Shown piece after piece: positions 1 through 38,738 of a DNA stretch of 64,000 bases. The DNA comes from Nanobdellota archaeon (GTDB lineage: Archaea; Nanobdellota; Nanobdellia; Pacearchaeales; GW2011-AR1): contig JAUWPB010000002.1 in NCBI GenBank assembly GCA_030611805.1, positions 7,690 to 71,689 on the forward strand, read 5' to 3'. Position numbers and translations under genes: made by a program. How positions within the stretch are numbered: position 1 is the first letter of the stretch; the number at the start of each line of letters is the position of its first letter. The notes below the pieces were generated by a model. The model was given only the letters and a program-made list of their open reading frames with translations. It had not been told where the DNA came from and ran no database searches.

Positions 1-5
1 TTCTT

Positions 6-962
6 ATGAAATTTTCATTGGTAATTCCTGTAGCACCTGAAAGAGATGCAGAAATAATAGATTCTATCAGAAAATTAGACTATCCTAAATCAGAGTTTCA
101 TGTTTTAGTTGTTAGGGGAAAGAATCCCTCGGAAAACAGGAACAAAGGAGCGTCTAAAGCAAGAGGAGAGATAATAGTTTTTTTAGATGATGATGCCGTA
201 TTAGAAAAAGATTATCTAAAAAATGCTGAAGAATTTTTTGAAAGACATAAAGAAATAGATATTGTTGGGGGGCCTCAATTAACTCCAAAAGATGAAATTG
301 GTTTTGCACAGATTTCTGGTTATGCACTTAGTTCTAAATTTGGTGCATTTAGATTGGCCCATAGATATTCAATAAAAAAAGAAAACCTTAATGTTGATGA
401 AACTGCACTTACTTCTGCAAATCTTTTGTGCAGAAAAGAAGTTATGGAAAAAATAAAATTTGAGGCAAGATTATTTCCAGGTGAAGACCCAAAATTTATT
501 GAAGATGCAAAAAAACAAGGGTTTAAAGTTGCATATTCTCCAGATATAATCTTATACCACAGAAGAAGACCAACAATTAGGAGTATGGCAAAACAATTTT
601 TTAATTATGGAAAAGTAAGACCAAAAAAAGAATCTTTTATTAAAACCCTTGAAAAACCTTATTTTCTTGTCCCAAGTATTTTTTCAATTTATTTAATTAG
701 TTTATTGCTCATAATTATGATTAGTCCTTCAATAATTAGTAGTGTTAATAATTTGGAAAATATGAGGATAGATAATTCTGGGTTTTTATTTTTTATTCCA
801 TTATTTGTTTATATTATTCTTAATTTATTATTCTCAGCATATGATTCAATAAACAATAAAAACTATAAAGCAATTTTATTTCTGCCTTTTATCTATTTCA
901 CAATTCACTTTAGTTATGGTTTTGGCATGATTTATGGTTACTTGAGAAAGTTAAAAAAATGA
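6..962 (+). CDS. GT2-family glycosyltransferase with hydrophobic C-terminal anchor
   Basis: N-terminal 'FSLVIPVAP' and 'VFLDDDAVL' (DxD-like) motifs typical of GT-A/GT2. The C-terminal third is hydrophobic. Stop overlaps the next start (ATGA at 959-962). Confidence 0.75.
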   Translation: MKFSLVIPVAPERDAEIIDSIRKLDYPKSEFHVLVVRGKNPSENRNKGASKARGEIIVFLDDDAVLEKDYLKNAEEFFERHKEIDIVGGPQLTPKDEIGFAQISGYALSSKFGAFRLAHRYSIKKENLNVDETALTSANLLCRKEVMEKIKFEARLFPGEDPKFIEDAKKQGFKVAYSPDIILYHRRRPTIRSMAKQFFNYGKVRPKKESFIKTLEKPYFLVPSIFSIYLISLLLIIMISPSIISSVNNLENMRIDNSGFLFFIPLFVYIILNLLFSAYDSINNKNYKAILFLPFIYFTIHFSYGFGMIYGYLRKLKK

Positions 963-2419
963 AAATATTAATGGGTTATCCTCCGACAGAATCTGAAAAA
1001 GGAACTGCGACTCTTGGGCAAAATCGTCAGTTTCAGTGGTTTACAAATCCTTGTTTGATTTTCCCGGTTGTTCCTGCAAGTGCTGCTACTTTGTTAGATA
1101 AAAAGGGCCATAATGTTCAGTGGATTGATTGTATTGCTGAAAAAATAAACCGGAAAGATTTTATTAAAATAATTGAAAAAGAAAATCCAGATTTATTTGT
1201 TTTTGAAACAAAAACCCCTGTTGTAAAAATGCATTGGAAAATTATTGGTGATTTAAAAAAAAGATTTCCAAAAATAAAAATAGTCATTATGGGAGATCAT
1301 GTAACTTCTTTTCCTGAAGAAACAATGAAAAATTCTAAAGTTGATTTTGTTCTTTGTGGAGGAGATTTTGATTTCTTATTACTTGAATTAGTGAATTGGC
1401 TTGCAAAGAAAACAAAAAAAATTCCTAAAGGAATTTATTATAGGGGCAAAAATAAAATAATCAATAGTGGAAAATTTCAATTAAAACATAATTTAGATGA
1501 ATTACCTTTTATTAATCGGGAATTAGCAAAATGGCGTCTTTATGATAAAGAATATAATCTCATTGGAAGGCCTTTTTTTTATATTATGTCTGGAAGAGAT
1601 TGTTGGTGGAGGAGGTGCAAGTTTTGCGCATGGCCGAAGCTGTTCCCAAAATTCAGGGTTCGGAGTGTTGAAAATGTTTTAAATGAAATAAAAATGTTAA
1701 TTAATAAATATAATGCCAAAGAGATTTTTGATGATTCTGGAACTCTAATGATTGGAGAATGGCTAAAAGATTTGTGTAATGGATTGATAAAAAGAGGTTA
1801 TAATAAAAAAATAAAATATTCCTGCAATATGAGGTTTGGGGCATTAAAACAAGAAGATTATGATTTAATGAAAAAAGCCGGGTTTAGACTTTTGAAATTT
1901 GGGCTTGAATCAGCAAACCAAAAAACACTTGATAAATTGGATAAAGGAATAAAAGTTGAGGACATAATTAAAGGTTGTGAAATGGCTAAAAAATCAGGAT
2001 TGACAGTTCATTTAACAATGATTGTTGGTTATCCTTGGGAAACTAAACAAGATGCCTTGAAAACTTTTGAATTAGCTAAGAAATTAATGCAATCTGGCAA
2101 AGCTGATTTGTTGCAATCTACTGTTTTAATTCCTTATCCCGGAACACGTTTATGGAAAGAAGCAAAACAAAATAATTGGTTATTATTTAATGAAAAAGCT
2201 TATGAAAGATATGACCAAAGAGAACCTGTATTAAAAACAAAAAATTCCGAACCTGAAGAAATTGCAAGCATCTGTGGAAAAATTTACACTATTTTTTTGA
2301 CCCCTCAGTATATTTTCGCAAGATTGAAAAGCATAAAAAATTGGGACGATTTTAAATTTAATCTGCGAGGAGCCAAAGCTGTTTTAGGACATTTAAATGA
2401 TTTTTGGAAAGGAAAATGA
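959..2419 (+). CDS. B12-binding-domain radical SAM enzyme (atypical Cx4Cx2C triad)
   Basis: Rossmann-like N-terminal half ('IVIMGDHVT', 'VLCGGDFD'), then 'GRDCWWRRCKFCAW' and 'LKFGLESANQ'. The layout matches class-B rSAM, but Cys spacing is 4+2 rather than 3+2. Confidence 0.7.
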   Translation: MKILMGYPPTESEKGTATLGQNRQFQWFTNPCLIFPVVPASAATLLDKKGHNVQWIDCIAEKINRKDFIKIIEKENPDLFVFETKTPVVKMHWKIIGDLKKRFPKIKIVIMGDHVTSFPEETMKNSKVDFVLCGGDFDFLLLELVNWLAKKTKKIPKGIYYRGKNKIINSGKFQLKHNLDELPFINRELAKWRLYDKEYNLIGRPFFYIMSGRDCWWRRCKFCAWPKLFPKFRVRSVENVLNEIKMLINKYNAKEIFDDSGTLMIGEWLKDLCNGLIKRGYNKKIKYSCNMRFGALKQEDYDLMKKAGFRLLKFGLESANQKTLDKLDKGIKVEDIIKGCEMAKKSGLTVHLTMIVGYPWETKQDALKTFELAKKLMQSGKADLLQSTVLIPYPGTRLWKEAKQNNWLLFNEKAYERYDQREPVLKTKNSEPEEIASICGKIYTIFLTPQYIFARLKSIKNWDDFKFNLRGAKAVLGHLNDFWKGK

Positions 2420-3231
2420 GGAACATAAAAATAAATCCTTTAGTTTCAGTGGTAATTCCTACAAAAAATAGGGCCTATATTCTGGGAGAAACAATAGAGT
2501 CTTTGTTAAAACAAACTTATACAAACATAGAGATAATAGTAGTTGATGATTGTTCCACAGACAAAACCCAACAATTAGTTTATGAAATTCAAAAAAGAAG
2601 CGGAAAAAAGATTATCTTTTTACAAAATGAAAAGAATAAAGGTCCTGCAGCCTCAAGGAACAGAGGAGTAAAAGAATCAAAAGGAGAGATTATCTTTTTT
2701 ACAGATTCTGATTGTTTTGTTCCGAAAGATTGGCTTGAGAAGATAATTAAGGAATATAAAGATAAAGAAATTGTCGGTGTGGGGGGATACCTAAAACCAG
2801 ACACAAATAACTGGGTTGGAAAATTAGAAAATCTTCAAAACAAATACCTTCTCCACATAGGAAATAAAAAAATTAAAGGAAACGAAAAATGCCCGGTAGG
2901 ATATACAAATAGCATGACTTATAAAAAAGATGTTTTGGAAAAGGCAGGAGGATTTAATGAAAATTTCAAATTTCCCTCGGGAGAAGATATTGATTTAAAA
3001 AAGAGGATATGCTCTAAAGGGGCTAAATTGGTTTTTGTTCCAGCCCCAATAATGCATCTTGATGAATATAATTTAGACTATTTACTAAACAGATTTATAA
3101 TAAGAGGACTAAACAAAGATGTTCCAAAAAATAAAATTTTCAAAATATTTTATGTTTTATTTATGTTTCCTTTAATTGTTATAAAAATTATCATTAAAAT
3201 AATAAAATATAAATTGCAGAGGGTTATTTAG
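2416..3231 (+). CDS. GT2-family glycosyltransferase
   Basis: 'VSVVIPTKNRAYILGETIESLLKQTY..IEIIVVDDCSTD' and 'FTDSDC' motifs. ATG at 2416 forms an ATGA overlap with the upstream stop; the track start at 2404 is TTG. Confidence 0.8.
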   Translation: MRNIKINPLVSVVIPTKNRAYILGETIESLLKQTYTNIEIIVVDDCSTDKTQQLVYEIQKRSGKKIIFLQNEKNKGPAASRNRGVKESKGEIIFFTDSDCFVPKDWLEKIIKEYKDKEIVGVGGYLKPDTNNWVGKLENLQNKYLLHIGNKKIKGNEKCPVGYTNSMTYKKDVLEKAGGFNENFKFPSGEDIDLKKRICSKGAKLVFVPAPIMHLDEYNLDYLLNRFIIRGLNKDVPKNKIFKIFYVLFMFPLIVIKIIIKIIKYKLQRVI

Positions 3232-3239
3232 AGGATAAA

Positions 3240-4331
3240 ATGACTTATAAAAAAGTTATAAGAAAAATTTATTGGAAACATTCTTTTAAATTTTTTATGT
3301 GTGCATTATCATGTTTTCTATCCAAACCAAAAGCGATTTCATTTCCATTAAGAGTTGAGATTGAAAACGGTGCAGGATGTAATTTAAAGTGCAAAATGTG
3401 TGCTCTAAATAATATGAAAAGAAAAAGAGGGTTTCTGAATTTCAAAAACTTCAAAAAAATATATGACCAAGTAAAGCCCCCTTATTGCAATCTTTCAGGA
3501 TATACAGAAAGCTTCCTGAATAAAGATATTTTCAAGATGATAAAATATGCAAAAAGTCAGGGTTCTTTTGTGAAGTTAGATTCAAATGCAACGATTATGA
3601 ACAAACAAATTATAGAAAATATTATTGAGTCGGATTTAGATTCAATTTCAATTTCAATAGATGGCTCCACACAAAAAACATATGGAAAGGTACGAAGAGG
3701 AGGAAAATTAGATATAGTTTTATTAAATCTAAAAAAACTTATTAGACAAAAAAACAAAAAAAAATCCAATCTGATAATAGCAATAGCAATAGTTGTGCAA
3801 AAAGATAATCTTCAAGATTTAATGAATATTATTAAATTGCTTGATGAAATTGGGGTGAATGAAATAAATCCTGTCCCAATTACAGAATATGATATTGAAA
3901 AATATGACAAATTTACATTGAAGAACTGCATTGTAGAATTGGAAAAGTTTTGTAAAGAAAAATTAAAAACAAAAACAAAGGTAAATGTTGGTGCCTTAAA
4001 TAGATATTTAAAGGATTATGAAAAGAATAATTTACGGTATAAAAAAGAAGCATGCTACGCTCCGTGGTATGATTCATATATTACTTGGGAAGGAGATGTA
4101 GTTCCATGCTGTTATCATTATGACAAACAAGTCTGCTTTGGTAATGTTTTTAAGGAAGATTTTAAAAAAATTTGGAATAATAAAAAATACAAAGATTTTA
4201 GAAAAAAGATTGTTAAAAAAAGGGAATCTATGATTTGCCAAACATGTAGAAATCACGATACTTTTTTAGAAGATAAATTTAAAATATTGCGAAAAATCCC
4301 TTTTATAGGAGTTTTATCAAATAGAAATTAA
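3240..4331 (+). CDS. radical SAM enzyme with SPASM-like C-terminal Cys cluster
   Basis: 'GAGCNLKCKMCAL' CxxxCxxC triad. C-terminal 'CYAPW..GDVVPCCYHYD..CFGN..CQTCRN'. Confidence 0.8.
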   Translation: MTYKKVIRKIYWKHSFKFFMCALSCFLSKPKAISFPLRVEIENGAGCNLKCKMCALNNMKRKRGFLNFKNFKKIYDQVKPPYCNLSGYTESFLNKDIFKMIKYAKSQGSFVKLDSNATIMNKQIIENIIESDLDSISISIDGSTQKTYGKVRRGGKLDIVLLNLKKLIRQKNKKKSNLIIAIAIVVQKDNLQDLMNIIKLLDEIGVNEINPVPITEYDIEKYDKFTLKNCIVELEKFCKEKLKTKTKVNVGALNRYLKDYEKNNLRYKKEACYAPWYDSYITWEGDVVPCCYHYDKQVCFGNVFKEDFKKIWNNKKYKDFRKKIVKKRESMICQTCRNHDTFLEDKFKILRKIPFIGVLSNRN

Positions 4332-4332
4332 A

Positions 4333-4968
4333 ATGCAAAAATATTTTGGAAAAGAAAGAATATGTAGAGAATATATTGACAAAAATATAAAAGGAAAAAC
4401 ACTTAATATAGGGGCGGGAGAAGTTTTATGGATAGAAAATGAACTCTTTTTAAATAATCCTAAGTTTATCTCCTCTGATATTGAAGAAAAAAATTTGAGG
4501 AGTAAAAATTTTGCATTAAACAAAATTGAAATAGATGCTGTGAAAATACCATTTAAAGATGGCGAGATATCTCAAATAATTATTTTAGATGTTTTAGAAC
4601 ACATAAAACATGATCTAAAAGTTGTTGAAGAAATGAACAGAATATTGAAGAAAGGATGTGCAATAGTAATTTGTGTACCGAGTGAAAATTTCTGCAATAT
4701 TTTTAACCCAATAAAATATTTGCAACATAAACGGCATTATTCTATTGAAAATATAACTTCTCTTTTAACAAAAAATGGATTTAAAATAGAAAAAATCTTT
4801 TGTGGAGGGGGGTTTTTTGAATTACTTGATTTATACATTCATCTAATTATAAAACATACAACTGGAAAATTAGCTTGGTTCAATTTTTTAAAAAAGTTGA
4901 AAGATTGGGAATATAGAAAACATAATGAAAATGGAAATGAGATTATTATAAGGGCTATTAAAAAATAA
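4333..4968 (+). CDS. class I SAM-dependent methyltransferase (type 11-like)
   Basis: 'TLNIGAGE' glycine-rich SAM loop and 'IIILDVLEHI' motif. Confidence 0.7.
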   Translation: MQKYFGKERICREYIDKNIKGKTLNIGAGEVLWIENELFLNNPKFISSDIEEKNLRSKNFALNKIEIDAVKIPFKDGEISQIIILDVLEHIKHDLKVVEEMNRILKKGCAIVICVPSENFCNIFNPIKYLQHKRHYSIENITSLLTKNGFKIEKIFCGGGFFELLDLYIHLIIKHTTGKLAWFNFLKKLKDWEYRKHNENGNEIIIRAIKK

Positions 4969-5043: not shown

Positions 5044-6540
5044 ATGCTTAAAATATTGTTAATCAATCCATATCTTACTCATAAAACAAATGAGAGAAAA
5101 TATCCCATGGAACCATTAGGATTATTATCCCTTGCTACTTATTTAAACAGTAGAATAAAAAAAAATATTTTAGAGTTTGAAATTCAAATTCTTGATGCTC
5201 AACTTGAGGGGGCAGAAAAATGTATCAAAACAAAAAGAGGTTATAGATCTGGTTTAAGTGATGCTGAAATTGAAAATAAATTGAAAAAATATAATCCGGA
5301 TATAATTGGCATTACAAACAATTATACTGGTCACACAAGAGATGTTCTGGATTTTTCTAAAATAGCAAAAAAAGTTTGCCCAAAAATTAAACTGATTTTG
5401 GGAGGAGCCCATGCTACAATTGCCCATGAAGAAATTATCAAAGAAAAAGACATTGATGTGATTGTGAGGGGCGAGGGGGAAGAAACCTTTAAAGAAATCG
5501 TTCTTTCATTGAAGAACAAAACTAATCTTAAAGATATTTTATCTATAACTTATAAAGAAAAAAATAAGATAAAGATAAATCCAAAAAGACCCTTAATTGA
5601 AGACATAAACACTCTTCCAATTCCTGATCGTTCATTAATCCCTTACAAAAAGTACCTTGAAAAAACATCTATAAATTACTTTTTCACGATGAATAAACCT
5701 GTTGGAACACTTTTTACTTCAAGGGGCTGTCCTTTCAGGTGTATATTTTGTAGCACCAGTAAGGTATGGACAAATAAATGGAGAGGAAGAAGTGCGGAAA
5801 ATATAATTGAGGAAATAGAATATTTAAAAAGAATTTACAAGGTAAAGGAAATCTCTTTCATGGATGATCAATTCATGGGAAATAAAAAAAGAATTAAAAA
5901 ATTATGCAGATTAATTATAAAGAAAAAATTAGGAGTTAGTTTTATTTGTCCTCCAGGAATATCTCCTTCATTAGTTGATGAAGAAGCACTAAATTTAATG
6001 AAACAAGCAGGGTTTTACAGAATTTGTTTTTCAATTGATGTTGGGACTAATCTTGCAAGAGATTATGTGGGAAAACCAGTCAAATTAGAGGAAATGCGAG
6101 AGTTAATTAAAAATGCTAATTCAAAAGGTTTTTGGACATATGCACATTTTGTGATTGGATTTTTACATGAAAAGACCTCGGATATTCAAGAAACAATAAA
6201 GTATGCATATGGTCTAAAATTAGATTTTGCAAGATTCTTCATAGCCCAACCATATTTAGGTTCCAGACTCTATGATATTTATCTTGAAAAAGGCTTAATC
6301 AATAAAAATGATGTGGAAGATCATAATTCAATATATGAACCAGTTATTGGGACAGAGCATATTTCCTGCGAGAAACTTAAAACATTGAGAGACTCTGCAG
6401 AGTATGGTTATTCTAAATTTCATATAAAACATTTCATGAATCCTTTCTATATGATTAAAGAATTTCTTCCAAAAATATCCTCTTTTAAAAAATTCAATTA
6501 TTTTGTTGGATTGATATCTCACTATGGTGATAAGAAATAA
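5044..6540 (+). CDS. B12-binding-domain radical SAM enzyme
   Basis: 'ILLINPY', 'LILGGAHAT', 'VIVRGEGEETF' in the B12-like half, then 'SRGCPFRCIFCS'. Confidence 0.8.
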   Translation: MLKILLINPYLTHKTNERKYPMEPLGLLSLATYLNSRIKKNILEFEIQILDAQLEGAEKCIKTKRGYRSGLSDAEIENKLKKYNPDIIGITNNYTGHTRDVLDFSKIAKKVCPKIKLILGGAHATIAHEEIIKEKDIDVIVRGEGEETFKEIVLSLKNKTNLKDILSITYKEKNKIKINPKRPLIEDINTLPIPDRSLIPYKKYLEKTSINYFFTMNKPVGTLFTSRGCPFRCIFCSTSKVWTNKWRGRSAENIIEEIEYLKRIYKVKEISFMDDQFMGNKKRIKKLCRLIIKKKLGVSFICPPGISPSLVDEEALNLMKQAGFYRICFSIDVGTNLARDYVGKPVKLEEMRELIKNANSKGFWTYAHFVIGFLHEKTSDIQETIKYAYGLKLDFARFFIAQPYLGSRLYDIYLEKGLINKNDVEDHNSIYEPVIGTEHISCEKLKTLRDSAEYGYSKFHIKHFMNPFYMIKEFLPKISSFKKFNYFVGLISHYGDKK

Positions 6541-6569
6541 GAAAAAAGTAAATAAGAGATTTGGTAAAA

Positions 6570-28883: not shown

Positions 28884-28889
28884 CTTCCT

Positions 28890-29007: not shown

Positions 29008-29023
29008 TATCCTTGCTAGTTAA

Positions 29024-31516: not shown

Positions 31517-32277
31517 AAAAAGAATTTGATGGTTTTAAAAAAACAGGTATTGATAATCAAATTGAGAGTAAGATAGAAAAACATTGTAAAAACTATAATA
31601 TTAATCCTTTGAATGCTATAAAACTATTTCCTGTACTTGCACGTCGTCAACTACTTAAAAGATTTCTTGCACATACAGAATTATTTAAAAGAACATTAGA
31701 TATTCCAGGGGATATTGTGGAATTAGGTGTTTTTAGGGGAGGGGACTTGATGACTTGGGCAAATTTACTAGAAGTATATAGTATTGGGAATCGCACTAAA
31801 ATTGTATATGGATTTGATAATTGGGAGGGATTTACTAAATTATCTCCTGAAGATGGCAAAGTTGATAATTCTGTCCAAAAAAAGGTTGGAGGTTATTCTC
31901 CAGCAAATTATTTTGAAGAATTAAAATCAGCCATTAAAATTTATGATGAAGATAGATTTATTCCTTGGAAAGATCGTGTGAAATTAATTAAAGGAAATAT
32001 TGAAGAAACTGCACATACATTTATTAAAGAAAATCCTGGAGTAAGATTCTCATTAGTTCATTGTGATTGTGATTTATATGAACCAACAAAAGCCGCATTA
32101 GAATGTTTTTGGCCACATTTATCTCGTGGAGGGATTATGTTATTTGATGAATATGCACTACATGAGTGGTCAGGGGAAACAAAGGCTGTTGATGAATATT
32201 TTGCAGATAAACCAAATATAAAGATTAAAACTCTAACTTGGACTAATGCTCCTGCAGCTTATATTATAAAAGAATAA
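31513..32277 (+). CDS. TylF/MycF-like SAM-dependent methyltransferase
   Basis: 'GDIVELGVFRGGD' and 'HCDCDLYEPTKAALECFWPHLSRGGIMLFDEY'. ATGA overlap with the upstream stop. Confidence 0.75.
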   Translation: MKKEFDGFKKTGIDNQIESKIEKHCKNYNINPLNAIKLFPVLARRQLLKRFLAHTELFKRTLDIPGDIVELGVFRGGDLMTWANLLEVYSIGNRTKIVYGFDNWEGFTKLSPEDGKVDNSVQKKVGGYSPANYFEELKSAIKIYDEDRFIPWKDRVKLIKGNIEETAHTFIKENPGVRFSLVHCDCDLYEPTKAALECFWPHLSRGGIMLFDEYALHEWSGETKAVDEYFADKPNIKIKTLTWTNAPAAYIIKE

Positions 32278-32364: not shown

Positions 32365-32760
32365 ATGAAAAAAGCATCAAAAATTATTTTAATTAATCCT
32401 AAAAAAGAAATTTTATTGTATTTAAGAGATAATAAACCGACAATATCACACCCTGATTATTGGGATTTTATTGGGGGAGAGGGGGAAAAAGGAGAAACTT
32501 CTTTACAAACGATTCAAAGAGAAATAAAAGAAGAGATAAATTCTAGAGTCAGCGAAATTAAAATTTTGAATAGTGAAATATATAACCCTTTAAATACAAA
32601 TGTAACTTTTTTCAAAGGGAAAATTAATGAAAATATAGAAAACATTAATTTAACAGAAGGGCAAAAATTAGGATTTTTTAAATTATTAAATTTACCTTCA
32701 AAATTCCCTTTCTTTTATAGAGATTTTATTCATAAAAATAAACATAAGATCTTTGATTAA
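32365..32760 (+). CDS. Nudix hydrolase
   Basis: Nudix box 'GGEGEKGETSLQTIQREIKEEI' (GX5EX7REUXEE). Confidence 0.7.
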   Translation: MKKASKIILINPKKEILLYLRDNKPTISHPDYWDFIGGEGEKGETSLQTIQREIKEEINSRVSEIKILNSEIYNPLNTNVTFFKGKINENIENINLTEGQKLGFFKLLNLPSKFPFFYRDFIHKNKHKIFD

Positions 32761-32814: not shown

Positions 32815-33702
32815 ATGGGCAAAGAGATAAAAATCCCAGACACATATAAGTACATATCTGCATTTTTAACAATGAGATGTAATCTTAATTGCAGTTTTTG
32901 TTTAAATGCTTTTGATAAAAATTTTAACAGAAAAAGTTTTGAAGAAATTTCTGGGGAGCAATGGGTTGAAGCATTAAATAAAATAGAATCAAGGTCTGAT
33001 GTCCCAATTACTCTCACTGGAGGAGAGCCTTCATTACATAAAGATTTTATTTATATTATAAATAATCTAAAACCAGAACTCAATATAGACTTCTTAACAA
33101 ATCTTTCTTGGGGGAAAAAAGGTTTGGAGAAGTTTATTTTAAAAGTTGATCCGAATAGAATTAAAAGAGATGCGCCTTATGCTTCTATCCGTGTTTCTTA
33201 CCATCCAGAACAGATGGGGAATGGAATCAAACTTGCTGAAAATGCGAAAAAATTGCAGGATGCAGGTTTTAGTATTGGAATATGGTCTGTCTTATATCCA
33301 AGTCAACAACAATTGTCTGCAATTAACCAGATGCAATTTGTATGCAAGGACGCGAAAATTGATTTCAGAATTAAAGAATTTACAGGAGAATATAAAGGAG
33401 AGATATATGGAAATTATTCTAAATTTCCTGGCTCGGCCTTTAATTCTAAAGAGACCTTACAAGGGATGTGTAAAACAACAGAACTATTAATGGGCCCATG
33501 TGGTGATGTTTATAGATGTCATAGGGATGCGTTTGCAGGAGAGAATCCTGTTGGAAACATAACTTCTCCATACTTTAAAATCAAAGATATTTTTAGACCT
33601 TGTGATAAATACGGACAGTGCCATCCATGTGATGTTAAAGTCAAAACAAATTATAAACAAGAATTAGGACATACAAGTGTTGAAATAAAAAATGTTAAAT
33701 AA
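32815..33702 (+). CDS. radical SAM enzyme
   Basis: 'LTMRCNLNCSFCLN', 'TLTGGEPSLH'. Cys-rich C-terminus 'CGDVYRCH..CDKYGQCHPCD'. Confidence 0.7.
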   Translation: MGKEIKIPDTYKYISAFLTMRCNLNCSFCLNAFDKNFNRKSFEEISGEQWVEALNKIESRSDVPITLTGGEPSLHKDFIYIINNLKPELNIDFLTNLSWGKKGLEKFILKVDPNRIKRDAPYASIRVSYHPEQMGNGIKLAENAKKLQDAGFSIGIWSVLYPSQQQLSAINQMQFVCKDAKIDFRIKEFTGEYKGEIYGNYSKFPGSAFNSKETLQGMCKTTELLMGPCGDVYRCHRDAFAGENPVGNITSPYFKIKDIFRPCDKYGQCHPCDVKVKTNYKQELGHTSVEIKNVK

Positions 33703-34849
33703 AAAACAAATTGTTTTTGTAGAATCTTTTTTTAATGTGCCCACTTTTAACATGGCCTATGCACTAAAAAAAACAAAAAAATATGAAACTGTTTTAATTT
33801 TACTTGCTAAACATGATAAAAAAATATTTGAAAAAGCTTTTGATAAAATCTTTATTTTTGATTTAAAATTTAATCTTACTCCAAAAGGATTGATTAATTT
33901 TTTTAAAAAAATAAAAAGTAAAGAAGGAAAAAAATTTCTTGCAAAAATAAAAAAAATTAATCCTCATGTTTTCCAGATAACTGGTCCTGACTTAGTTACT
34001 TTATGGTTCATGCATTTTTTAAAGAAGAAAGTAAAAGTATACTATGCTTATGATATATGGAAGTTTTATGACAAAAAATTCTCCTTTAAAAAAAATTCAG
34101 GAATAATGCAATTTTTTCATAAATATACTGAAAGAATTTGCTTTAAAATGGCAGACGGAATTTTGCATAAATGTTCTCCAAAAATGATTAATTTATTAAA
34201 ATTAAAGAGTAAAACCCCAGAACTATCTTTTTTACCATGTTGTTTGGATGAATGGAATTATTCTATAAAAGAAAAGCGAAAAAATAAAGAATTGCATATA
34301 GTCTATGCTGGGAGATTTTGGGATAAATGGAAAGGTCATATTTCTTTTCCTAAAATAATTAAAGATATAATTTCCCAAAAAATTCATTTTCATATCTATG
34401 ATTTATTGACAAAAGAATTTAAAGAAAATCTTAAAAATATAAATAAAAAATATTTACATTTGCATAAATTAGTATCTATAGATAAATTAAATAAGGAAAT
34501 TTCAAAATATGATTATGGGTATTGTATGGATTTCACAGATGATTCAATAGTAAATCCCTTATGGAGGAAAGCGGGCATAGCAAATAAATTATTTAGTTAT
34601 ATTGGGGCAGGACTACCGACTATAGCGAATGAACAACTAGAATATATAGCTAAAATAGTTCGGGATAATAATATTGGAATTACAATAAAAGATTTTAAAG
34701 ACCTAAAAAACCTAAGAAAAATTCTTGAAAAACAAAATTATGGGCAATTACAAAAAAATGTCAGAAAAGCCCAGGAGAAATTTAAATTGAGCAAGAATAT
34801 AGAAAAATTAGAAAGATTTTATGAGAAAGTTGTTGAGATGAAAAGGTGA
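33692..34849 (+). CDS. putative GT-B glycosyltransferase (GT4/GT1-like)
   Basis: Two-lobed size. 'LHIVYAGRF' starts the C-lobe and 'NKLFSYIGAGLPTIANE' follows. Motifs are weaker than in the other GT4 genes. Confidence 0.45.
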   Translation: MLNKKQIVFVESFFNVPTFNMAYALKKTKKYETVLILLAKHDKKIFEKAFDKIFIFDLKFNLTPKGLINFFKKIKSKEGKKFLAKIKKINPHVFQITGPDLVTLWFMHFLKKKVKVYYAYDIWKFYDKKFSFKKNSGIMQFFHKYTERICFKMADGILHKCSPKMINLLKLKSKTPELSFLPCCLDEWNYSIKEKRKNKELHIVYAGRFWDKWKGHISFPKIIKDIISQKIHFHIYDLLTKEFKENLKNINKKYLHLHKLVSIDKLNKEISKYDYGYCMDFTDDSIVNPLWRKAGIANKLFSYIGAGLPTIANEQLEYIAKIVRDNNIGITIKDFKDLKNLRKILEKQNYGQLQKNVRKAQEKFKLSKNIEKLERFYEKVVEMKR

Positions 34850-35105
34850 GTATAATAAAACTTGGTTTTTCTTGGATTATTTTTTTAAAAAGTAATTCTT
34901 TGATATTTTTTGGTCCATAATCCAATCTTTTTTTCTTTAAATCAAAAAAGATTGTTTTTTTAAATGATTTTCCGATTGGGAGACACCAATTTTGATATCC
35001 ATCGCCATCTTTATTTTCACAGTCCCAAAAACAAAACATAATTTTCTTATTTTTAAGTTTCTTCTCTAATTCTTTTAAATTAAGATCTTTAGATTCTTTA
35101 TTCAT
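34782..35105 (-). pseudogene. possible N-terminal remnant of a CgeB-like/GT-B protein
   Basis: 'KIMFCFWDCENKDGDGYQNWCLPIGKSF..FFDLKKK..DYGP..' resembles only the first ~85 aa of GT-B proteins. The last ~22 codons run antisense into the 3' end of 33692-34849. Confidence 0.25.
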
Positions 35106-35197
35106 TTTAAATGTTAATTATTTTGCATATTAAAAAAACTTTTTAATTTTATCTATAGTCAAACATCATCTTTTAAAAGCATCATAAAATTTAAAAA

Positions 35198-35704
35198 TTA
35201 TTTTACCACTTTTAACTCTACATCAATCTTTGAAAGAAAACCATTTATAAATAAAGATAATTTTTCTCTGACATATTTAGGAAAAAATTTACCCGCAATA
35301 GTTGGGGTTATTTTTAATTTAATTATTTCGAATTCCTTTTTTAAATTTATTTTATTTACTTGCTTTTCTAAATGTATAAAACAATCTTCATTAAAAAAAC
35401 GTTTATGTTCCAAGCTAGAGTAAGCTCCTTTATTTGTATAGTGGGGAACAACTATTCTTATAATTCCGTTATCTTTTGCAATTCGCCATAATTCTTGAAC
35501 TACTTTATCTGGTTCTTTTAAATGTTCCAAAACATTATCTGTATAAATATAATCATAAGTATTATCTTTAATAGGATATGGAAATATATTAAAATCAAAA
35601 CTCTTTGTAACCTTCTTATCTTTTTGTATATCTACATTATCCCATCCTTCTCTTATATCATCCCCACATCCTAAATTGAGTTTTTTAATTTTCTTTTTTA
35701 CCAT
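35198..35704 (-). CDS. class I SAM-dependent methyltransferase (type 11-like, short)
   Basis: 'LNLGCGDD', 'TDNVLEHLKEP', 'IVVPHY'. Paralog of 22878-23360. Confidence 0.7.
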   Translation of the reverse strand: MVKKKIKKLNLGCGDDIREGWDNVDIQKDKKVTKSFDFNIFPYPIKDNTYDYIYTDNVLEHLKEPDKVVQELWRIAKDNGIIRIVVPHYTNKGAYSSLEHKRFFNEDCFIHLEKQVNKINLKKEFEIIKLKITPTIAGKFFPKYVREKLSLFINGFLSKIDVELKVVK

Positions 35705-35763: not shown

Positions 35764-37320
35764 TTATTGTGGATAAATTTTCCTCTTGATACTTCTTAAA
35801 ATCATAAAATCATTTTTATCAAGACATTTAGTAAGAAATATTAAAAGGGTGTAAGATGTAATAAATAAAAAAGTTAATAATATTATACTTATTATGTTAA
35901 TAATGACTAATTCTCTGGCACAAATTAATAACAGCAAAGGGATAATTGAAATTGCTCCTATCTTAATCATCTTTCTTCTTAGGGGAATAAAAGAAAAATA
36001 ATGTTTTGTTTGGAATGCAAAGAGAATATTAAGAGAAATATATGAAATCATTGTTGCTATTGCTGCCCCATTTATTCCAAGACTATTTTCTATAAAAAAG
36101 ATTTGTTTCATAGGAATCAAAAGATAATTTAAAATTATATTCACAAGGGCTATAAAAAACAAGTCTTTTAAGAGGAGTCTTGATTTTCCTGCCACCAAAA
36201 TTAATTTAGAAGAGATTATAAATATTGAAGAAACGAATGCTCCTATTGCAAGGATTCGCAATGAATTTTCAGCAGCCAAATAATTCCCTCCAAATAAAAT
36301 GTTTATAAAAACTCCTGGAAACAAAATTAAAAATATAAAAATAGGGAGGTTAATCATAAATATCCATTTTACAATTTGCTTGCTTGTTTCCTGGATAGTT
36401 TTAAAATTTTTTGCTGAATATTGTTTAATAATCAACGGGAAAAATAAAGTTATAAACAATGAAGGGGCAATTAATAGAAGGAGTGCTATTGGAACGGCAG
36501 CATTATACAAACCAACTTCAAATACACTTTTTAAATATCCTATAAAAAAAGAATCTGTCCAGTAAAAAATATTCCCAATTAGCCCTACAAACATAATTGG
36601 CCAGGAATATGAAAGAATTTTATTTTTTATTTTAACTGCTTCTTGTTCTTTTAATTTATATTTCTTAAAAATCTCTGGAAAACCATATTTACACAATAAA
36701 AAAGATGTTATTAAAACAATTAAAAATCCTAAAACATAAGAAAAAATAATTGCACTAGTTTTAAATCCCAAAACAAGAAGAAAAATAAGAGATATTACCT
36801 TAATAGCATTTAACAAAATATTATCTATAAAAGAGTACCAGGAAATCTTTTCAAATGCTCTTATGACTGAAAGGAAAATATTTGAAATGACATATAGAGG
36901 GATAACAAAACTAAAAATCTTGAGGAAAATTATTAAATCTGTATTATGAAAAAAGTTTATTGAAATAAACTCTGAAAAAAAGAAGAGGATAATTCCGGAA
37001 ATCATGCTTAAGAAAAATGAAATTGTTAAGGAAAATTTAAACAGATATCTTATTTTTTGTCTTTCTTTTTTTCCCCGATAAAGAGAGATATATCTTAAAA
37101 GTCCTTCTGACAAACCCAAGGAAGAAAAAGCTACAAAAAAACCCAAAATCATTATTGCCAAAGAAAATAAACCATATACTTCCGGACCAAAATTCCTTGC
37201 AATTATTATTCTATAAACATAGTTAAAAATCTTAGCAAAAAAAATCCCTGCAAAAACAATAATGGAAGATTTGGCTAATAGTTTCAAATCTTTATCAATT
37301 TCTTTTTGTTCGTTTTTCAT
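35764..37320 (-). CDS. Wzx/RfbX-type oligosaccharide flippase (MOP superfamily)
   Basis: About 14 hydrophobic segments. N-terminus 'LLAKSSIIVFAGIFFAKIFNYVYRIIIARNFGPEVYGLFSLA' is typical of polysaccharide-biosynthesis flippases. Confidence 0.75.
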   Translation of the reverse strand: MKNEQKEIDKDLKLLAKSSIIVFAGIFFAKIFNYVYRIIIARNFGPEVYGLFSLAIMILGFFVAFSSLGLSEGLLRYISLYRGKKERQKIRYLFKFSLTISFFLSMISGIILFFFSEFISINFFHNTDLIIFLKIFSFVIPLYVISNIFLSVIRAFEKISWYSFIDNILLNAIKVISLIFLLVLGFKTSAIIFSYVLGFLIVLITSFLLCKYGFPEIFKKYKLKEQEAVKIKNKILSYSWPIMFVGLIGNIFYWTDSFFIGYLKSVFEVGLYNAAVPIALLLLIAPSLFITLFFPLIIKQYSAKNFKTIQETSKQIVKWIFMINLPIFIFLILFPGVFINILFGGNYLAAENSLRILAIGAFVSSIFIISSKLILVAGKSRLLLKDLFFIALVNIILNYLLIPMKQIFFIENSLGINGAAIATMISYISLNILFAFQTKHYFSFIPLRRKMIKIGAISIIPLLLLICARELVIINIISIILLTFLFITSYTLLIFLTKCLDKNDFMILRSIKRKIYPQ

Positions 37321-37369: not shown

Positions 37370-37426
37370 TTCACTCAAAAACCTTCAACTTCTTAAACTT
37401 TATAAAATCATATATCAGAGAAAATT
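37370..37426. repeat. 57-bp direct repeat, copy A
   Basis: TTCACTCAAAAACCTTCAACTTCTTAAACTTTATAAAATCATATATCAGAGAAAATT is identical to 38682-38738. The flanking bases differ on both sides. Confidence 0.95.
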
Positions 37427-37496
37427 AAAAATATTCACTTAAAAGATTTCTAATACTAAAAATAAAAAAAACATTTTTAATTATATAGGAAGGTCA

Positions 37497-38243
37497 TTAT
37501 TTTTGTTTAATATTAAGAGGGGTCTTCCAAACCACAAGATTAAGTTTGACAAATTTCTTTGCAATTGATTTTGGAATAAAGATTTTTAAAAATGATTTAA
37601 GTTTTGGGCGGAAAATAACAAAATTATGTAAATTATTTAAAATTTTAGATTTTGGTTTATAACTTTTCCCACGAAGAGGAAAATCTTCTTTGCCATCATA
37701 TTTACATTTTAAAAATTTAAGGACTCTTTGATAAACTTTTTTTGTATTTTTTGTAAAATCTTTAAAGTCTATTAATAAAATCTGATTAGACGGAAAAACT
37801 TTCTTAAATCTATCAATATTAATTTTATGATTATATATCTCCCAATAAAGCACATCATCCCGTATATCTCCCCTTAGAAGAAGGGTTTTAAAAAGAGAAA
37901 GAAGCCCTTCATTAGGGTCTCTTACCATGATGATTATTTTTGCTTTTGGATTAAATTTATATAATTTTTTAGGAGCATTTGGAGAAGAGATATACCATGG
38001 AGTAGATTCCCCAATTATTCTTTCATTTTTTACATCTTTAAATAATTTTTGATACTCTTTCAATGTTTTTACAACTTGTGTTGATTTAAAATCTGAAAAA
38101 AATCCTGGTTCTTTTAATTCAGACATAAAAATTTCTAGATGTTCCCCCAAATAATTATGTAAACTTGTTGTTCCTGACCTTTGGGGCCCCACAATAAATA
38201 AATTTGGTTTTTTCATTTTTAATACTTTAAAAGATTTTTTCAT
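37497..38243 (-). CDS. PAPS-dependent sulfotransferase
   Basis: 5'-PSB-like 'FIVGPQRSGTTSL' and 'IIIMVRDP' (3'-PB region). Confidence 0.75.
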   Translation of the reverse strand: MKKSFKVLKMKKPNLFIVGPQRSGTTSLHNYLGEHLEIFMSELKEPGFFSDFKSTQVVKTLKEYQKLFKDVKNERIIGESTPWYISSPNAPKKLYKFNPKAKIIIMVRDPNEGLLSLFKTLLLRGDIRDDVLYWEIYNHKINIDRFKKVFPSNQILLIDFKDFTKNTKKVYQRVLKFLKCKYDGKEDFPLRGKSYKPKSKILNNLHNFVIFRPKLKSFLKIFIPKSIAKKFVKLNLVVWKTPLNIKQK

Positions 38244-38246
38244 CTT

Positions 38247-38681
38247 TTAAATGTTCTCCTTGTTTAAAAAGATTTTTATTAATTCTACGCTTTTATCCAA
38301 AGATATTGTGTCATTGTCAACCATTAAAGAATAATTTTTTGGTTCTTCATAAAAATGCCCTTCTCTTTTCTCCAATGTTTTTTTAAGATATATCCATTTT
38401 GGATTACAAATTTTATCTACTTCATTTCTAATTTCCACCGTAGGAGCAATAACAGAAACAATTACATTTGTCTGTTTTGACAAGATTTTTGCTAATCTTG
38501 CTACTCGCAAATTGTGCTCCATTCTATCTTGTCTTGAAAAGCCTGTATTCAAAGAAATACTTTCCCTCATTTCATCTCCATCTAAAACAACGGCATTAAA
38601 CTCTTTTCTTAAACCATACGCTAAAGATGTTTTTCCTGATTCACTCTGCCCAGTTAACCAAATTATTTTATTTTTTTCCAT
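38247..38681 (-). CDS. cysC: adenylyl-sulfate (APS) kinase, short form
   Basis: 'IIWLTGQSESGKTSLA', 'VLDGDEMRE', 'GFSRQDRMEHNLRVARLAKIL'. The ATG at 38681 directly abuts repeat copy B; the track start at 38690 is TTG. Confidence 0.8.
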   Translation of the reverse strand: MEKNKIIWLTGQSESGKTSLAYGLRKEFNAVVLDGDEMRESISLNTGFSRQDRMEHNLRVARLAKILSKQTNVIVSVIAPTVEIRNEVDKICNPKWIYLKKTLEKREGHFYEEPKNYSLMVDNDTISLDKSVELIKIFLNKENI

Positions 38682-38738
38682 TTCACTCAAAAACCTTCAA
38701 CTTCTTAAACTTTATAAAATCATATATCAGAGAAAATT
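38682..38738. repeat. 57-bp direct repeat, copy B (contains the last 17 sense codons and the stop codon of 38683-39138)
   Basis: Identical to 37370-37426. On the minus strand it also contains TTTTATAAAG about 29 nt upstream of the APS-kinase ATG. Confidence 0.95.

Follow-up and report, generated by a model that had tools for sequence, protein, structure and literature searches.

The 64,000-nucleotide stretch analysed here (the window) contains a cell-surface sugar-assembly locus of about 41 kb, which extends from about 2 kb upstream of window position 1 to 38,690, and in which 13 of 36 genes (counted in 1-38,738) encode radical-SAM enzymes. A sequence-only reading had already ended the cluster at about 38.7 kb, but the start proved to lie upstream of the window. 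The genes are as follows.

Within about 2 kb before position 1, outside the window: a Wzx-like gene (408 aa) and a GT2 gene (258 aa)
6-962, plus: GT2 glycosyltransferase, 318 aa (PF13641/PF00535)
959-2419, plus: B12-binding radical-SAM enzyme with variant CX4CX2C (PF02310, PF04055; best model HpnJ, sub-threshold)
2404-3231, plus: GT2 glycosyltransferase (PF00535, 137 bits)
3240-4331, plus: radical-SAM enzyme; auxiliary domain of Twitch type with Cys 272/290/333/336 (PF04055, PF13186; C-terminal match to BtrN)
4333-4968, plus: SAM methyltransferase (PF08241)
5044-6540, plus: B12-binding radical-SAM enzyme, SRGCPFRCIFCS (PF02310, PF04055; the top-scoring models, Sden_1168 and BchE, miss their cut-offs)
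6561-7718, plus: radical-SAM enzyme; auxiliary domain of Twitch type with Cys 312/330/373/376 (PF04055, PF13186; top PDB sequence matches BlsE and BtrN)
7721-9238, minus: GT-C glycosyltransferase (PMT_2/ArnT-like), candidate extracytoplasmic transferase (PF13231, 68.9 bits)
9275-10714, minus: B12-binding radical-SAM enzyme (PF02310, PF04055, PF19864)
10836-12734, minus: GT9-GT2 fusion glycosyltransferase (PF01075, PF00535; 60.7 bits to the heptosyltransferase II model, short of its cut-off)
12736-14268, minus: B12-binding radical-SAM enzyme (PF02310, PF04055; 64% identical homologue in related locus L097)
14265-15407, minus: GT4 glycosyltransferase (PF00534/PF13439; 71% identical homologue in L097)
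15556-16263, plus: sugar-1-phosphate nucleotidyltransferase (PF00483; the top-scoring models, G1P cytidylyltransferase and HddC, miss their cut-offs)
16265-17233, plus: NDP-sugar 4,6-dehydratase-like SDR (PF16363, 212 bits; dTDP-glucose 4,6-dehydratase model 154 vs 365)
17235-18320, minus: GT4 glycosyltransferase (PF00534)
18362-19513, plus: GT9 (heptosyltransferase-family) glycosyltransferase (PF01075, 79.5 bits; heptosyltransferase III/II models below cut-off)
19554-20801, plus: radical-SAM enzyme (PF04055); its family is widespread (1631 homologues) and repeatedly found together with GT9 genes
20804-21736, minus: ADP-glyceromanno-heptose 6-epimerase-like SDR (TIGR02197, full length, 243.6 bits vs cut-off 274.6)
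21826-22818, plus: BtrN-like Twitch radical-SAM enzyme (PF04055, PF13186; BtrN E=8e-18)
22878-23360, plus: small methyltransferase-like protein (PF08241, weak)
23420-24850, plus: B12-binding radical-SAM enzyme (PF02310, 78.6 bits; PF04055, 95.6 bits)
24901-25851, plus: GT9-family glycosyltransferase (PF01075)
25968-27026, plus: Twitch radical-SAM enzyme whose family is typical of Pacearchaeota, with cysteines 40/44/47 and 265/283/326/330 invariant
27029-28150, plus: Twitch radical-SAM enzyme, paralogue of 25968 (33% identity)
28152-29500, plus: short ThDP enzyme split into a 243-aa transketolase-N part and a 158-aa Transket_pyr part, without C-terminal domain
29537-30499, plus: TylF-family (sugar O-)methyltransferase (PF05711, 80.5 bits)
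30512-31516, plus: radical-SAM enzyme; SPASM/Twitch domain partial, with Cys 246/264/299 (PF04055, PF13186)
31513-32277, plus: TylF-family methyltransferase (PF05711, 65.1 bits)
32365-32760, plus: NUDIX hydrolase, candidate nucleotide-sugar hydrolase (PF00293)
32815-33702, plus: short radical-SAM enzyme, 295 aa, with C-terminal Cys cluster (PF04055, 38.5 bits)
33692-34849, plus: weak GT4-like protein (PF13692, 21.8 bits, below gathering score)
35198-35704, minus: SAM methyltransferase (PF08241)
35764-37320, minus: Wzx-type flippase, the island anchor gene (PF01943/PF13440)
37497-38690, minus: sulfotransferase and APS kinase (PF13469/PF00685 and PF01583)
38683-41595, minus: YdjM-SecD-SecF flank, the right island boundary (gene order kept in related locus L090 at 56-59% identity)

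All 13 ORFs first named as radical-SAM enzymes exceed the Pfam gathering score for PF04055. The N-proximal Cys triad ascribed to them takes the form CX3CX2C in 12; ORF 959 differs in having CX4CX2C (CWWRRCKFC, where its closest homologues keep CW[WY]G[KR]CTFC). The density first noted holds: when only ORFs of at least 100 aa are counted, they make up 13 of 36 in 1-38,738 and none in 38.7-64 kb (Fisher's exact test, p = 9e-5), with a binomial probability of 2e-11 if a background of 3% is assumed. Pairwise identity among the 13 is at most 33%, and none of them reaches the cut-off of a curated NCBIfam family; therefore, as also anticipated, known pathways do not reveal their chemistry.

The B12-binding domain PF02310 was found on the five ORFs predicted to carry it (959, 5044, 9275, 12736 and 23420), four of which share the motif [SG]RGCPxxCxxCS. 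Going by this domain match, the five enzymes may use or require cobalamin. ORF 959 scored 199.5 bits against the HpnJ model (cut-off 577.6), and ORF 9275 is the only one of the locus paralogues with a DxHxxG motif (DPHIIG). The closest relative of ORF 23420 (44% identity) lies in a Nanoarchaeota MAG locus with the same architecture, and the solved structures nearest to it and its B12-type paralogues are OxsB, AprD4, CysS and TokK. The models that score best for this group, HpnJ, Sden_1168 and BchE, fall in the class-B methylase cluster together with MoeK5, GenK and Fms7 (PMC9204698).

Pfam places a SPASM domain (PF13186) on six ORFs (3240, 6561, 21826, 25968, 27029 and 30512), the last three of which are additions to the three SPASM-like tails first counted. 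The full SPASM motif CX2CX5CX3C occurs in none of these six; their cysteines instead follow a four-Cys, BtrN-like Twitch pattern, and in ORF 21826 the cysteines at 239/257/302/305 line up with the C-terminal four of BtrN. Five extra cysteines (188/317/334/377/382) are invariant in the alignment of the ORF 19554 family, which suggests an auxiliary cluster there too. This family adjoins GT9 genes in the window, in locus L005 and in the LPS-core locus of a gammaproteobacterium (contexts L005 and L101). DesII, an NDP-sugar enzyme, is the top fold for the AlphaFold models of both the 19554 family (pLDDT 88.3) and the 25968 family (pLDDT 94.9; TM 0.68), with BlsE also matched by each, and members of the latter family are fused to Transket_pyr (P0367) and to a methyltransferase. 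Homologues of ORF 32815 at 64-65% identity occur in L097 and L100.

Pfam also bore out the remaining inventory of the locus: three GT2, two to three GT4, three GT9 and one GT-C (PMT_2) domains, five methyltransferases, an NTP-transferase, two SDR enzymes, Wzx, an APS kinase and a sulfotransferase. Homologues of the small methyltransferase-like ORF 22878 adjoin radical-SAM genes in L023, L037 and L020. No initiating phosphoglycosyltransferase, Wzy, AglB/STT3, GmhA, HldE or GmhB was found within the window; the related locus L105 includes HldE-like and GmhB-like genes.

Because its Cdc6 is 79-90% identical to homologues in Pacearchaeota and Nanoarchaeota MAGs, the host is by sequence a Pacearchaeota-type DPANN archaeon of the small-genome type that had been proposed, and of a symbiotic type. 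GC content is even across the region, and 24 kb of the locus recur with 0 mismatches in an independent Logan assembly. The SecF-SecD-YdjM-Wzx boundary is kept in relatives, which is evidence against a chimera. SecDF also adjoins a Wzx/GT2/B12-radical-SAM locus in Aenigmatarchaeota L016. Around this conserved anchor the radical-SAM content varies: homologues of the Wzx at 35764 were found in 12 metagenome loci at 44-55% identity and in Nanoarchaeota L023 at 50%, and eight of the 12 have B12 or Twitch radical-SAM genes, in differing orders. The sulfotransferase/APS kinase pair, inserted between YdjM and Wzx, is absent in L089 and L090. On this comparison, and with its even GC content, the island is best read as native to the chromosome, strain-variable and adjoining SecDF-YdjM.

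The locus does not stand alone. Glycosyltransferase-linked loci of a comparable kind (4-9 radical-SAM genes per 8-21 kb) are frequent in Pacearchaeota, and there are others in Nanoarchaeota, Aenigmatarchaeota, Patescibacteria and Omnitrophota; those of the last two also have DegT, SDR, GHMP kinase, GT2 and PMT_2. The module of radical-SAM (25968 family), split ThDP, NUDIX and methyltransferase genes is kept in L103 and L104, and a NUDIX gene adjoins the radical-SAM/ThDP module in L103-L105. Our literature search found no paper describing such radical-SAM-dense glycan loci, and the word "radical" is absent from a 2024 review on archaeal N-glycosylation; they are apparently an undescribed kind.

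It is probable that this is a variable island for a cell-surface glycan (or glycolipid), in which sugars bound to nucleotides or lipids are tailored by the radical-SAM enzymes. The earlier observation stands, and its interpretation does in part. We infer the substrates, the types of reaction, the use of cobalamin and the number of products (one or several). The nucleotidyltransferase, the 4,6-dehydratase-like and heptose-6-epimerase-like SDRs and the split ThDP enzyme would supply sugar nucleotides, and the GT2, GT4 and GT9 enzymes would assemble sugars on a lipid carrier. Decoration would fall to the five SAM methyltransferases and the PAPS-dependent sulfotransferase, the two Wzx paralogues would flip the products, and their transfer on the outer side of the membrane may be the work of the GT-C enzyme. 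The 13 mutually distant radical-SAM enzymes would form the tailoring set. Eight, with Twitch-like auxiliary clusters, may act by hydrogen abstraction on sugars linked to nucleotides or lipids, leading to oxidation, deoxygenation/deamination, epimerisation, decarboxylation or C-C chemistry, as with DesII, BlsE and BtrN; the five B12-domain enzymes may methylate unactivated sugar carbons (compare GenK, Fms7 and MoeK5) or rearrange rings (compare HpnJ and OxsB).

Context and predicted fold lead us to favour sugars over peptides as substrates, because the auxiliary domains are of Twitch type, the nearest structures are DesII, BlsE and BtrN, precursor ORFs are lacking and the genes are linked or fused to those of sugar enzymes. 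The matches to sugar enzymes are weak, at 13-18% identity, and the peptide maturases SuiB, SkfB and anSME score nearly as high in fold and sequence searches. We considered whether the SPASM- and B12-type enzymes mature, through thioether links, epimerisation or C-methylation, a RiPP or a surface protein (such as an S-layer protein or pilin) that neighbouring glycosyltransferases later glycosylate. The six Pfam SPASM matches, best sub-threshold NCBIfam models that are cofactor or peptide maturases, SkfB, YydG and PqqE as top PDB sequence matches for ORFs 30512 and 32815, and the high rank of SuiB and anSME in fold searches would fit. Yet none of the nine intergenic gaps of at least 60 bp holds a precursor-like ORF, the motif of the eight non-B12 enzymes starts at residues 22-68 and so leaves no space for an N-terminal RRE domain, and no SPASM-positive ORF has the two-cluster motif. 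With DesII and BlsE as top folds, fusions to Transket_pyr and methyltransferase in the family, and NUDIX, ThDP and SDR enzymes as conserved neighbours, we regard peptide maturation as very unlikely. Modification of isoprenoids, either the dolichol/polyprenol carrier or host membrane lipids that the cell scavenges, is also unlikely, if slightly less so; here methylation, cyclisation or cross-linking would proceed as with Gmm, GrsA/B, Gms and Tes, and the role of the glycosyltransferases would be limited to adding head groups. The B12-domain radical-SAM enzymes GrsA/B, Gmm and HpnR do act on lipids, which counts against the sugar reading. GrsA/B and Gmm are B12-binding and Gms is SPASM/Twitch, their genes are clustered in archaeal genomes, and DPANN are reported to have six homologues of Gmm (PMC11214058). 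Many archaeal loci matched through ORF 23420 (Thermoplasmata, Bathyarchaeia, Nitrososphaeria) pair one B12 enzyme with one or two SPASM enzymes, HpnJ, HpnR and ladderane B12 models are among the sub-threshold matches, and the head groups of glycolipids are substrates of HpnJ and Cds. However, those archaeal homologues of ORF 23420 (31-39% identity) are no closer than bacterial ones, the Tes match is weak (E 1e-4 to 1e-7), and glycosyltransferase and NDP-sugar genes lie among the radical-SAM genes and are translationally coupled to them, besides the known Transket_pyr fusion. The same dense architecture, again with sugar enzymes, recurs in Patescibacteria and Omnitrophota, which are not known to have GDGT lipids.

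A more serious contender, though still short of an even chance, is a mosaic of at least two glycan cassettes that are independent of each other (one might make an N-/O-glycan, another a glycolipid or capsule-like polymer) and were brought together at a recombination hot spot. The two Wzx paralogues are only 26% identical and transcription changes direction at least five times within the locus, which suggests more than the single glycan first envisaged. In addition, relatives combine the same parts in other orders, the sulfation pair is present only here, and the radical-SAM/ThDP/NUDIX module moves as a unit. If so, the count of 13 overstates the modification of any single product. Against this stands the uniform GC content, and since each sub-block has radical-SAM genes, every putative cassette would still be unusually rich in them; a mosaic would refine, not replace, the tailoring of surface sugars that we prefer. 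The recurrence of such loci in relatives and in other ultra-small microbes points to surface sugars of uncharacterised chemistry.

We found 36 non-overlapping ORFs of at least 100 aa between positions 1 and 38,738 of the window (referred to here as the locus; ORFs are named by their start coordinates), with a coding fraction of approximately 96%. When every ORF was scanned against Pfam, the radical-SAM domain (PF04055) exceeded its gathering score on exactly the 13 ORFs that had been proposed in the sequence-only reading, and no radical-SAM gene was found in the other 25 kb of the window. The enrichment of the locus over the rest of the window was significant (Fisher's exact test, p = 9e-5), and the binomial probability of the observed count is 2e-11, assuming a background of 3%. 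Pairwise identity among the 13 proteins is at most 33%, indicating that these are 13 different enzymes and not the result of a recent amplification. Recent tandem duplication of radical-SAM genes was rejected, since no pair of paralogues exceeds that value.

The accompanying genes bear out the glycan-assembly context that had been proposed. They include three GT2 domains, three GT9 domains (one fused to GT2), one GT-C enzyme of PMT_2 type, and two clear GT4 genes plus a weak one, in line with the two to three expected. Five methyltransferases were confirmed, two of them belonging to the TylF family, as were the sugar-nucleotide enzymes (a nucleotidyltransferase and two SDRs), and Pfam detected the Wzx flippase together with the APS kinase and sulfotransferase of the claimed sulfation module. 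Also inside the locus are a NUDIX hydrolase and a ThDP enzyme that resembles transketolase but is short and split. No Wzy or initiating phosphoglycosyltransferase domain was found by Pfam among window ORFs of at least 100 aa, and AglB/STT3 had no match in the window, where the sole GT-C enzyme is the PMT_2 protein; AglB may be encoded elsewhere in the genome. The locus has a single non-coding stretch of any size (34,850-35,197); a 107-aa ORF there (34782-35105, minus strand) runs into the end of the weak GT4-like gene and could be assigned to no family.

Five of the radical-SAM enzymes (ORFs 959, 5044, 9275, 12736 and 23420) had been taken to be of B12 type, and PF02310 scored above its gathering threshold on all five. 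In each, the radical-SAM core is preceded by a fused B12-binding Rossmann domain (class B architecture), and four do share the motif [SG]RGCPxxCxxCS, as had been noticed. The cluster motif is CX3CX2C in 12 of the 13 enzymes and CX4CX2C (CWWRRCKFC) in ORF 959, whose closest homologues keep CW[WY]G[KR]CTFC; the longer spacing is thus a real subfamily trait. Among the five B12-domain paralogues the DxHxxG motif occurs only in ORF 9275 (9275-10714, minus strand), as DPHIIG at residues 61-66. At this position the other four read xPD[IL][IFV]G, a hint that they may bind cobalamin in a different mode. Presence or absence of DxHxxG does not decide the question of cobalamin use, because among class-B enzymes of known structure most bind B12 with no His ligand (PMC9204698). 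B12 dependence, for which the domain match is the evidence, is plausible and would be interesting for a reduced genome.

Three ORFs had been described as having SPASM-like tails, a count that did not hold: PF13186 was found on six (3240, 6561, 21826, 25968, 27029 and 30512), and ORFs 19554 and 32815 matched only the core radical-SAM domain in Pfam. The CX2CX5CX3C half of the seven-Cys SPASM signature is absent from all six. A Twitch-like pattern, C-X17-C-X42-47-C-X2-3-C, is found in 3240, 6561, 21826, 25968 and 27029 and partially in 30512, and judging from this four-Cys spacing the predicted arrangement is the single-cluster Twitch domain. ORF 21826 can be aligned with BtrN, the aminoglycoside 2-deoxy-scyllo-inosamine dehydrogenase (E=8e-18), and its four cysteines pair with the four C-terminal cysteines of BtrN, which we take to be the ligands of its auxiliary cluster. 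In family alignments, the same four Twitch cysteines are invariant across homologues of ORF 25968 (the 25968 family), and homologues of ORF 19554 (the 19554 family) have five further invariant cysteines, suggesting a similar auxiliary cluster that escapes Pfam.

None of the 13 enzymes reached the whole-protein cut-off of a curated NCBIfam radical-SAM family, the comparison including HpnJ, BchE, HpnR, PhpK, AprD4, BlsE, DesII, AhbD, NirJ, PqqE, anSME, MoaA and viperin. Naming them by NCBIfam equivalog therefore failed for all, with scores far below the cut-offs, the best ratios being 199.5 vs 577.6 for ORF 959 (best model HpnJ), 196 vs 481 for ORF 23420 (BchE), 196 vs 575 for ORF 5044 (Sden_1168) and 127 vs 380 for ORF 21826 (tungsten-cofactor maturase). 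In sequence comparisons with solved structures, the closest to ORFs 25968, 6561, 3240 and 21826 were BlsE, BtrN and DesII; the B12-type enzymes came nearest to OxsB, AprD4, CysS and TokK, and ORFs 30512 and 32815 to SkfB, YydG and PqqE. Family alignments gave confident AlphaFold models, with pLDDT values of 94.9 (25968) and 88.3 (19554). The NDP-sugar enzyme DesII ranked first in fold searches with both models (TM 0.68 for 25968 and 0.55 for 19554), with SuiB, BlsE, viperins and MoaA close behind. The modelled structures thus lean towards nucleotide-sugar substrates without discriminating sharply.

The gene neighbours and fusions of two families also involve sugar enzymes. The 25968 family occurs fused to a transketolase pyrimidine-binding domain and to a methyltransferase, and in two related contigs (L103 and L104) it is accompanied by a split ThDP enzyme, NUDIX and methyltransferases. 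The transketolase-like pair of the window (28152-29500) is unusually short (243 + 158 aa) and lacks the transketolase C-terminal domain, and in other genomes the Transket_pyr half is fused to a 25968-family radical-SAM enzyme (protein P0367). Given these features, the pair may not be a pentose-phosphate transketolase but a ThDP enzyme of sugar branching. For the 19554 family 1631 homologues were found, most of them bacterial and 50-58% identical. ORF 19554 directly follows a GT9 gene, the locus L005 reads GT9 / cytidylyltransferase-like / radical-SAM / SDR / PMT_2, and in a gammaproteobacterial LPS-core locus the family member lies beside GT9, WaaA and Kdo kinase genes. Homologues in Planctomycetota stand alone, paired with a Gfo/Idh/MocA oxidoreductase outside glycan clusters, which limits what the neighbourhood of this family can tell. 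The Gfo/Idh/MocA gene consistently precedes the 19554-family gene (L101, 7018-10369; L003, 8893-11254; L102, 6550-8974), both in Planctomycetota and in a gammaproteobacterium, where the pair is inside the LPS-core locus. The pair looks like a two-gene unit, widespread among bacteria and so far uncharacterised.

Heptose-type sugars are suggested by an HldD-like SDR, the three GT9 domains and the transketolase-like enzyme. SDR 20804 scored 243.6 bits over its full length against the ADP-glyceromanno-heptose 6-epimerase (HldD) model (cut-off 274.6); the HddC model scored 96.5 against a cut-off of 300 for the nucleotidyltransferase (ORF 15556), and all NCBIfam heptosyltransferase models were below cut-off for the window GT9 proteins. 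GmhA, HldE and GmhB are absent from the window, and HldE-like and GmhB-like genes are present in the related contig L105.

We also searched for related loci. A genome scan used ORF 23420 as query against one genome per GTDB species, with flanks annotated against the proteins of the window, and three long contigs carrying the 25968 family were inspected. The loci recovered are as follows.

Radical-SAM-rich loci related to the window
L023, Nanoarchaeota MAG: 15 kb of the same architecture, with four B12-type and two SPASM-type radical-SAM genes
L022, Omnitrophota: nine radical-SAM genes in 21 kb
L037, Patescibacteria: five radical-SAM genes in 11 kb
L020, Patescibacteria: four radical-SAM genes in 8 kb
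L021, gammaproteobacterium: a dense radical-SAM set
L103, contig with the 25968 family: radical-SAM 9 of 20 genes, with ALS-like ThDP enzymes, a split E1/transketolase, NUDIX and DegT
L104, contig with the 25968 family: radical-SAM 6 of 23 genes, with C-methyltransferase-like genes and a module common to the window
L105, contig with the 25968 family: radical-SAM 4 of 15 genes, with the HldE-like and GmhB-like heptose genes and Wzx

The Nanoarchaeota locus also holds a Wzx (50% identical to that of the window), GT4, GT2, PMT_2 and a small methyltransferase. GHMP kinase, SDR, DegT aminotransferase, GT2, PMT_2 and methyltransferases were detected by Pfam in the Omnitrophota and Patescibacteria loci, which are thus sugar loci too. 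The module of L104 has the same order as that of the window: TK-N / TK-pyr / radical-SAM / NUDIX / short radical-SAM. When metagenomes were scanned with Wzx, 12 loci came up at 44-55% identity, and in eight of these, B12 or Twitch radical-SAM genes lie no more than a few kb away, in differing gene orders. L097 has counterparts of ORF 14265 (GT4, 71% identity) and ORF 12736 (B12 enzyme, 64% identity), in an arrangement that differs from the window. For the 25968 family, 1015 proteins were found at E <= 1e-5; among the best 120 clusters listed, identity is 55-83%, and those with a name belong to Pacearchaeota or Nanoarchaeota. Gene content, gene order, taxonomy and recurrence are direct observations. 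They point to a variable and recurrent type of radical-SAM-rich glycan island, of which the window has a large representative and which is typical of the lineage, not unique to this genome. In a Candidatus Jordarchaeum MAG (L030, 2946-15468), five B12-binding radical-SAM paralogues of 524-550 aa lie within 12.5 kb, four of them in direct tandem, and a BLAST screen found no glycosyltransferases nearby.

An independent assembly of the same sample (Logan, SRR12623521) places the left end of the locus about 2 kb outside the window, adding a second Wzx (26% identity to the first) and another GT2, with a YdjM-like gene beyond; the Wzx count is therefore two. The two flanking YdjM proteins have no significant similarity, and a duplication marking an inserted island was rejected. 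The right end is the APS kinase (38,690), followed by YdjM, SecD, SecF, three tRNAs and 5S rRNA, and then by the archaeal genes Orc1/Cdc6, DNA polymerase D small subunit and an Rpb3-type RNA polymerase subunit. With MAGs labelled Candidatus Pacearchaeota, Nanoarchaeota or Nanoarchaeia, the Cdc6 protein shares 79-90% identity, which places the host in this group of DPANN archaea. GC content stays between 24 and 33% throughout, without a step at the locus edges, and three Logan contigs agree with 24 kb of the locus with zero mismatches. The Logan contig carrying the sulfotransferase is only 1.3 kb long, and the right-hand junction is not spanned by an independent contig. Continuity there is supported by the uniform GC, the 24-kb agreement and the conserved order in relatives: the metagenome contig L090 has SecF-SecD-YdjM-Wzx in the same order at 55-59% identity, and in an Aenigmatarchaeota MAG SecDF adjoins Wzx, GT2 and three B12-radical-SAM genes. 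A chimeric contig is thus unlikely.

The APS kinase and sulfotransferase both exceeded Pfam thresholds (the APS kinase scored 75.6 vs 138.7 in NCBIfam), and ATP sulfurylase is absent from the window. The pair (37397-38711) sits between YdjM and Wzx, which are directly adjacent in two related loci (L089 and L090), and is an insertion specific to this genome. The same-sample Logan contig breaks at both of its edges, which may reflect strain heterogeneity for the insertion. Three further features lie outside the locus.

Features of the window outside the locus
41605-42467: directly after SecF, an 88-nt tRNA-Gly(tcc), whose length suggests an intron, together with tRNA-Arg, tRNA-Leu and a stand-alone 5S rRNA
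43588-45792 (plus strand), with 47852-49069: ABC-transporter ATPase gene split by an intein that contains a LAGLIDADG homing endonuclease (PF14890, PF14528), then a MacB/FtsX-type permease
53125-56542: tRNA-Leu(caa), then an HNH/recombinase-domain gene and a tyrosine integrase, which may be an integrated mobile element

From this gene content we infer substrates, reaction types and cobalamin use. The most likely product of the locus is one or more lipid-linked surface glycans. Cytoplasmic enzymes would supply NDP-sugars, including a 4-keto-6-deoxy intermediate and possibly heptoses. The Twitch enzymes would take hydrogen from NDP-sugars or from the growing lipid-linked oligosaccharide, giving oxidised, deoxygenated, epimerised, decarboxylated or C-C-modified units, and the B12-type enzymes would place methyl groups on unactivated carbons or rearrange rings. 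TylF-type and other methyltransferases would carry out O-/N-methylation, GT2, GT4 and GT9 enzymes would assemble the chains, and the two Wzx proteins would flip the products. The PMT_2 enzyme may transfer sugars outside the membrane, and the sulfotransferase would add sulfate.

The most serious alternative is that the radical-SAM enzymes modify lipids, as the archaeal lipid enzymes GrsA/B and Gmm are of B12 type and Gms is of SPASM/Twitch type (PMC11214058; PMC13459092). However, the archaeal homologues share no more than 31-39% identity. The architecture also recurs, together with sugar enzymes, in Patescibacteria and Omnitrophota, bacteria that are not known to have GDGT lipids. Maturation of peptides or proteins is disfavoured by the fusions, by clusters of Twitch rather than SPASM type and by the missing precursors, no plausible precursor peptide ORF having been found in any intergenic gap of the locus. 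In the eight non-B12 enzymes the cluster motif starts at residues 22-68, leaving no room for an N-terminal peptide-recognition (RRE) domain. A RiPP maturase system is therefore not indicated, with no plausible precursor gene adjacent and no such domain in these eight enzymes, although a precursor elsewhere is conceivable. It is quite possible that the region is a mosaic of several glycan cassettes, which would refine the surface-glycan reading and not contradict it.

Aminoglycoside and orthosomycin clusters belong to actinomycete secondary metabolism and contain one to three radical-SAM genes. In these pathways (the B12-radical-SAM C-methylases GenK/GenD1/Fms7, and BtrN, AprD4, DesII and BlsE), radical-SAM enzymes act directly on sugars or nucleotide-sugars beside GTs, SDRs and O-methyltransferases. 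The window resembles them in having BtrN, DesII, BlsE, AprD4 and OxsB as nearest structures, as well as a TylF-type methyltransferase and a ThDP enzyme. In contrast to antibiotic clusters, it combines 13 radical-SAM genes with a Wzx-type surface-glycan locus in a DPANN archaeon, and its proteins reach no cut-off of the antibiotic sugar-tailoring families. With archaeal Agl/Wzx-dependent loci the locus has in common Wzx, GT2/GT4, NDP-sugar enzymes and predicted methylation and sulfation, and it is likewise a variable island adjoining conserved genes, but AglB/STT3, an initiating phosphoglycosyltransferase and Wzy were not found in the window. Archaeal N-glycans include heptose and sulfated and methylated sugars, and a 2024 review of characterised archaeal N-glycosylation mentions no radical-SAM enzyme (PMC11407970). 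Likeness to the LPS inner-core heptose system lies in the three GT9 domains, the near-cut-off HldD-like SDR, the 19554-family gene of the gammaproteobacterial LPS-core locus and the HldE-/GmhB-like genes of L105; unlike that system, the window has an archaeal host and no GmhA, HldE, GmhB or Kdo genes.

HpnJ and the calditol synthase Cds carry out radical-SAM ring contraction of glycolipid head-group sugars (PMC13459092). HpnJ is the best model for ORF 959, but it is sub-threshold and the window has no hopanoid or GDGT context. Radical-SAM lipid genes with B12-binding and SPASM/Twitch domains (GrsA/B, Gmm, Gms, Tes) also cluster in archaeal genomes (PMC11214058), but each such cluster comprises two or three radical-SAM genes without GTs, and similarity to these lipid enzymes is no higher than to other class-B enzymes. 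By analogy, the closest functional counterparts would be the antibiotic sugar-tailoring radical-SAM enzymes, HpnJ and Cds, and the organisation would be that of Wzx-type/Agl loci. The locus departs from these systems in the number and diversity of its radical-SAM enzymes, which are members of none of their families. Full-text searches of an open-access library turned up no paper on loci of this kind in DPANN, CPR or Omnitrophota.

In conclusion, we describe a probable surface-glycan locus with an unprecedented load of putative radical-SAM tailoring enzymes. Characterised surface-glycan pathways have few or no such enzymes; here they account for one gene in three, none of them in a curated family. 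As a tentative and somewhat doubtful extension, DPANN archaea (including Pacearchaeota), Patescibacteria and Omnitrophota, as ultra-small episymbiotic lineages of the two domains, might share an unrecognised, horizontally exchanged toolkit, with dozens of radical-SAM families building C-methyl, C-branched, deoxy or carbocyclic surface sugars by reactions some of which would be unprecedented; the hypervariable and chemically exotic glycans would mediate host attachment or phage/host evasion, and the B12-type enzymes would tie surface biogenesis to host or community cobalamin. Should sugars be their substrates, the radical-SAM enzymes of the locus and its many relatives would amount to a large and so far untapped source of catalysts for C-H functionalisation of carbohydrates, including C-methylases, epimerases, deoxygenases and ring-rearranging enzymes. 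Experiments could start from two well-defined points, the conserved anchor SecDF-YdjM-Wzx and the mobile module in which radical-SAM genes are combined with split ThDP, NUDIX and methyltransferase genes. With five B12-type enzymes, a reduced genome would have a concrete cofactor dependency. DPANN and CPR organisms depend on attachment to a host, so their surface chemistry is central to their biology yet barely known, and their cell surface would be chemically unlike any glycocalyx studied.
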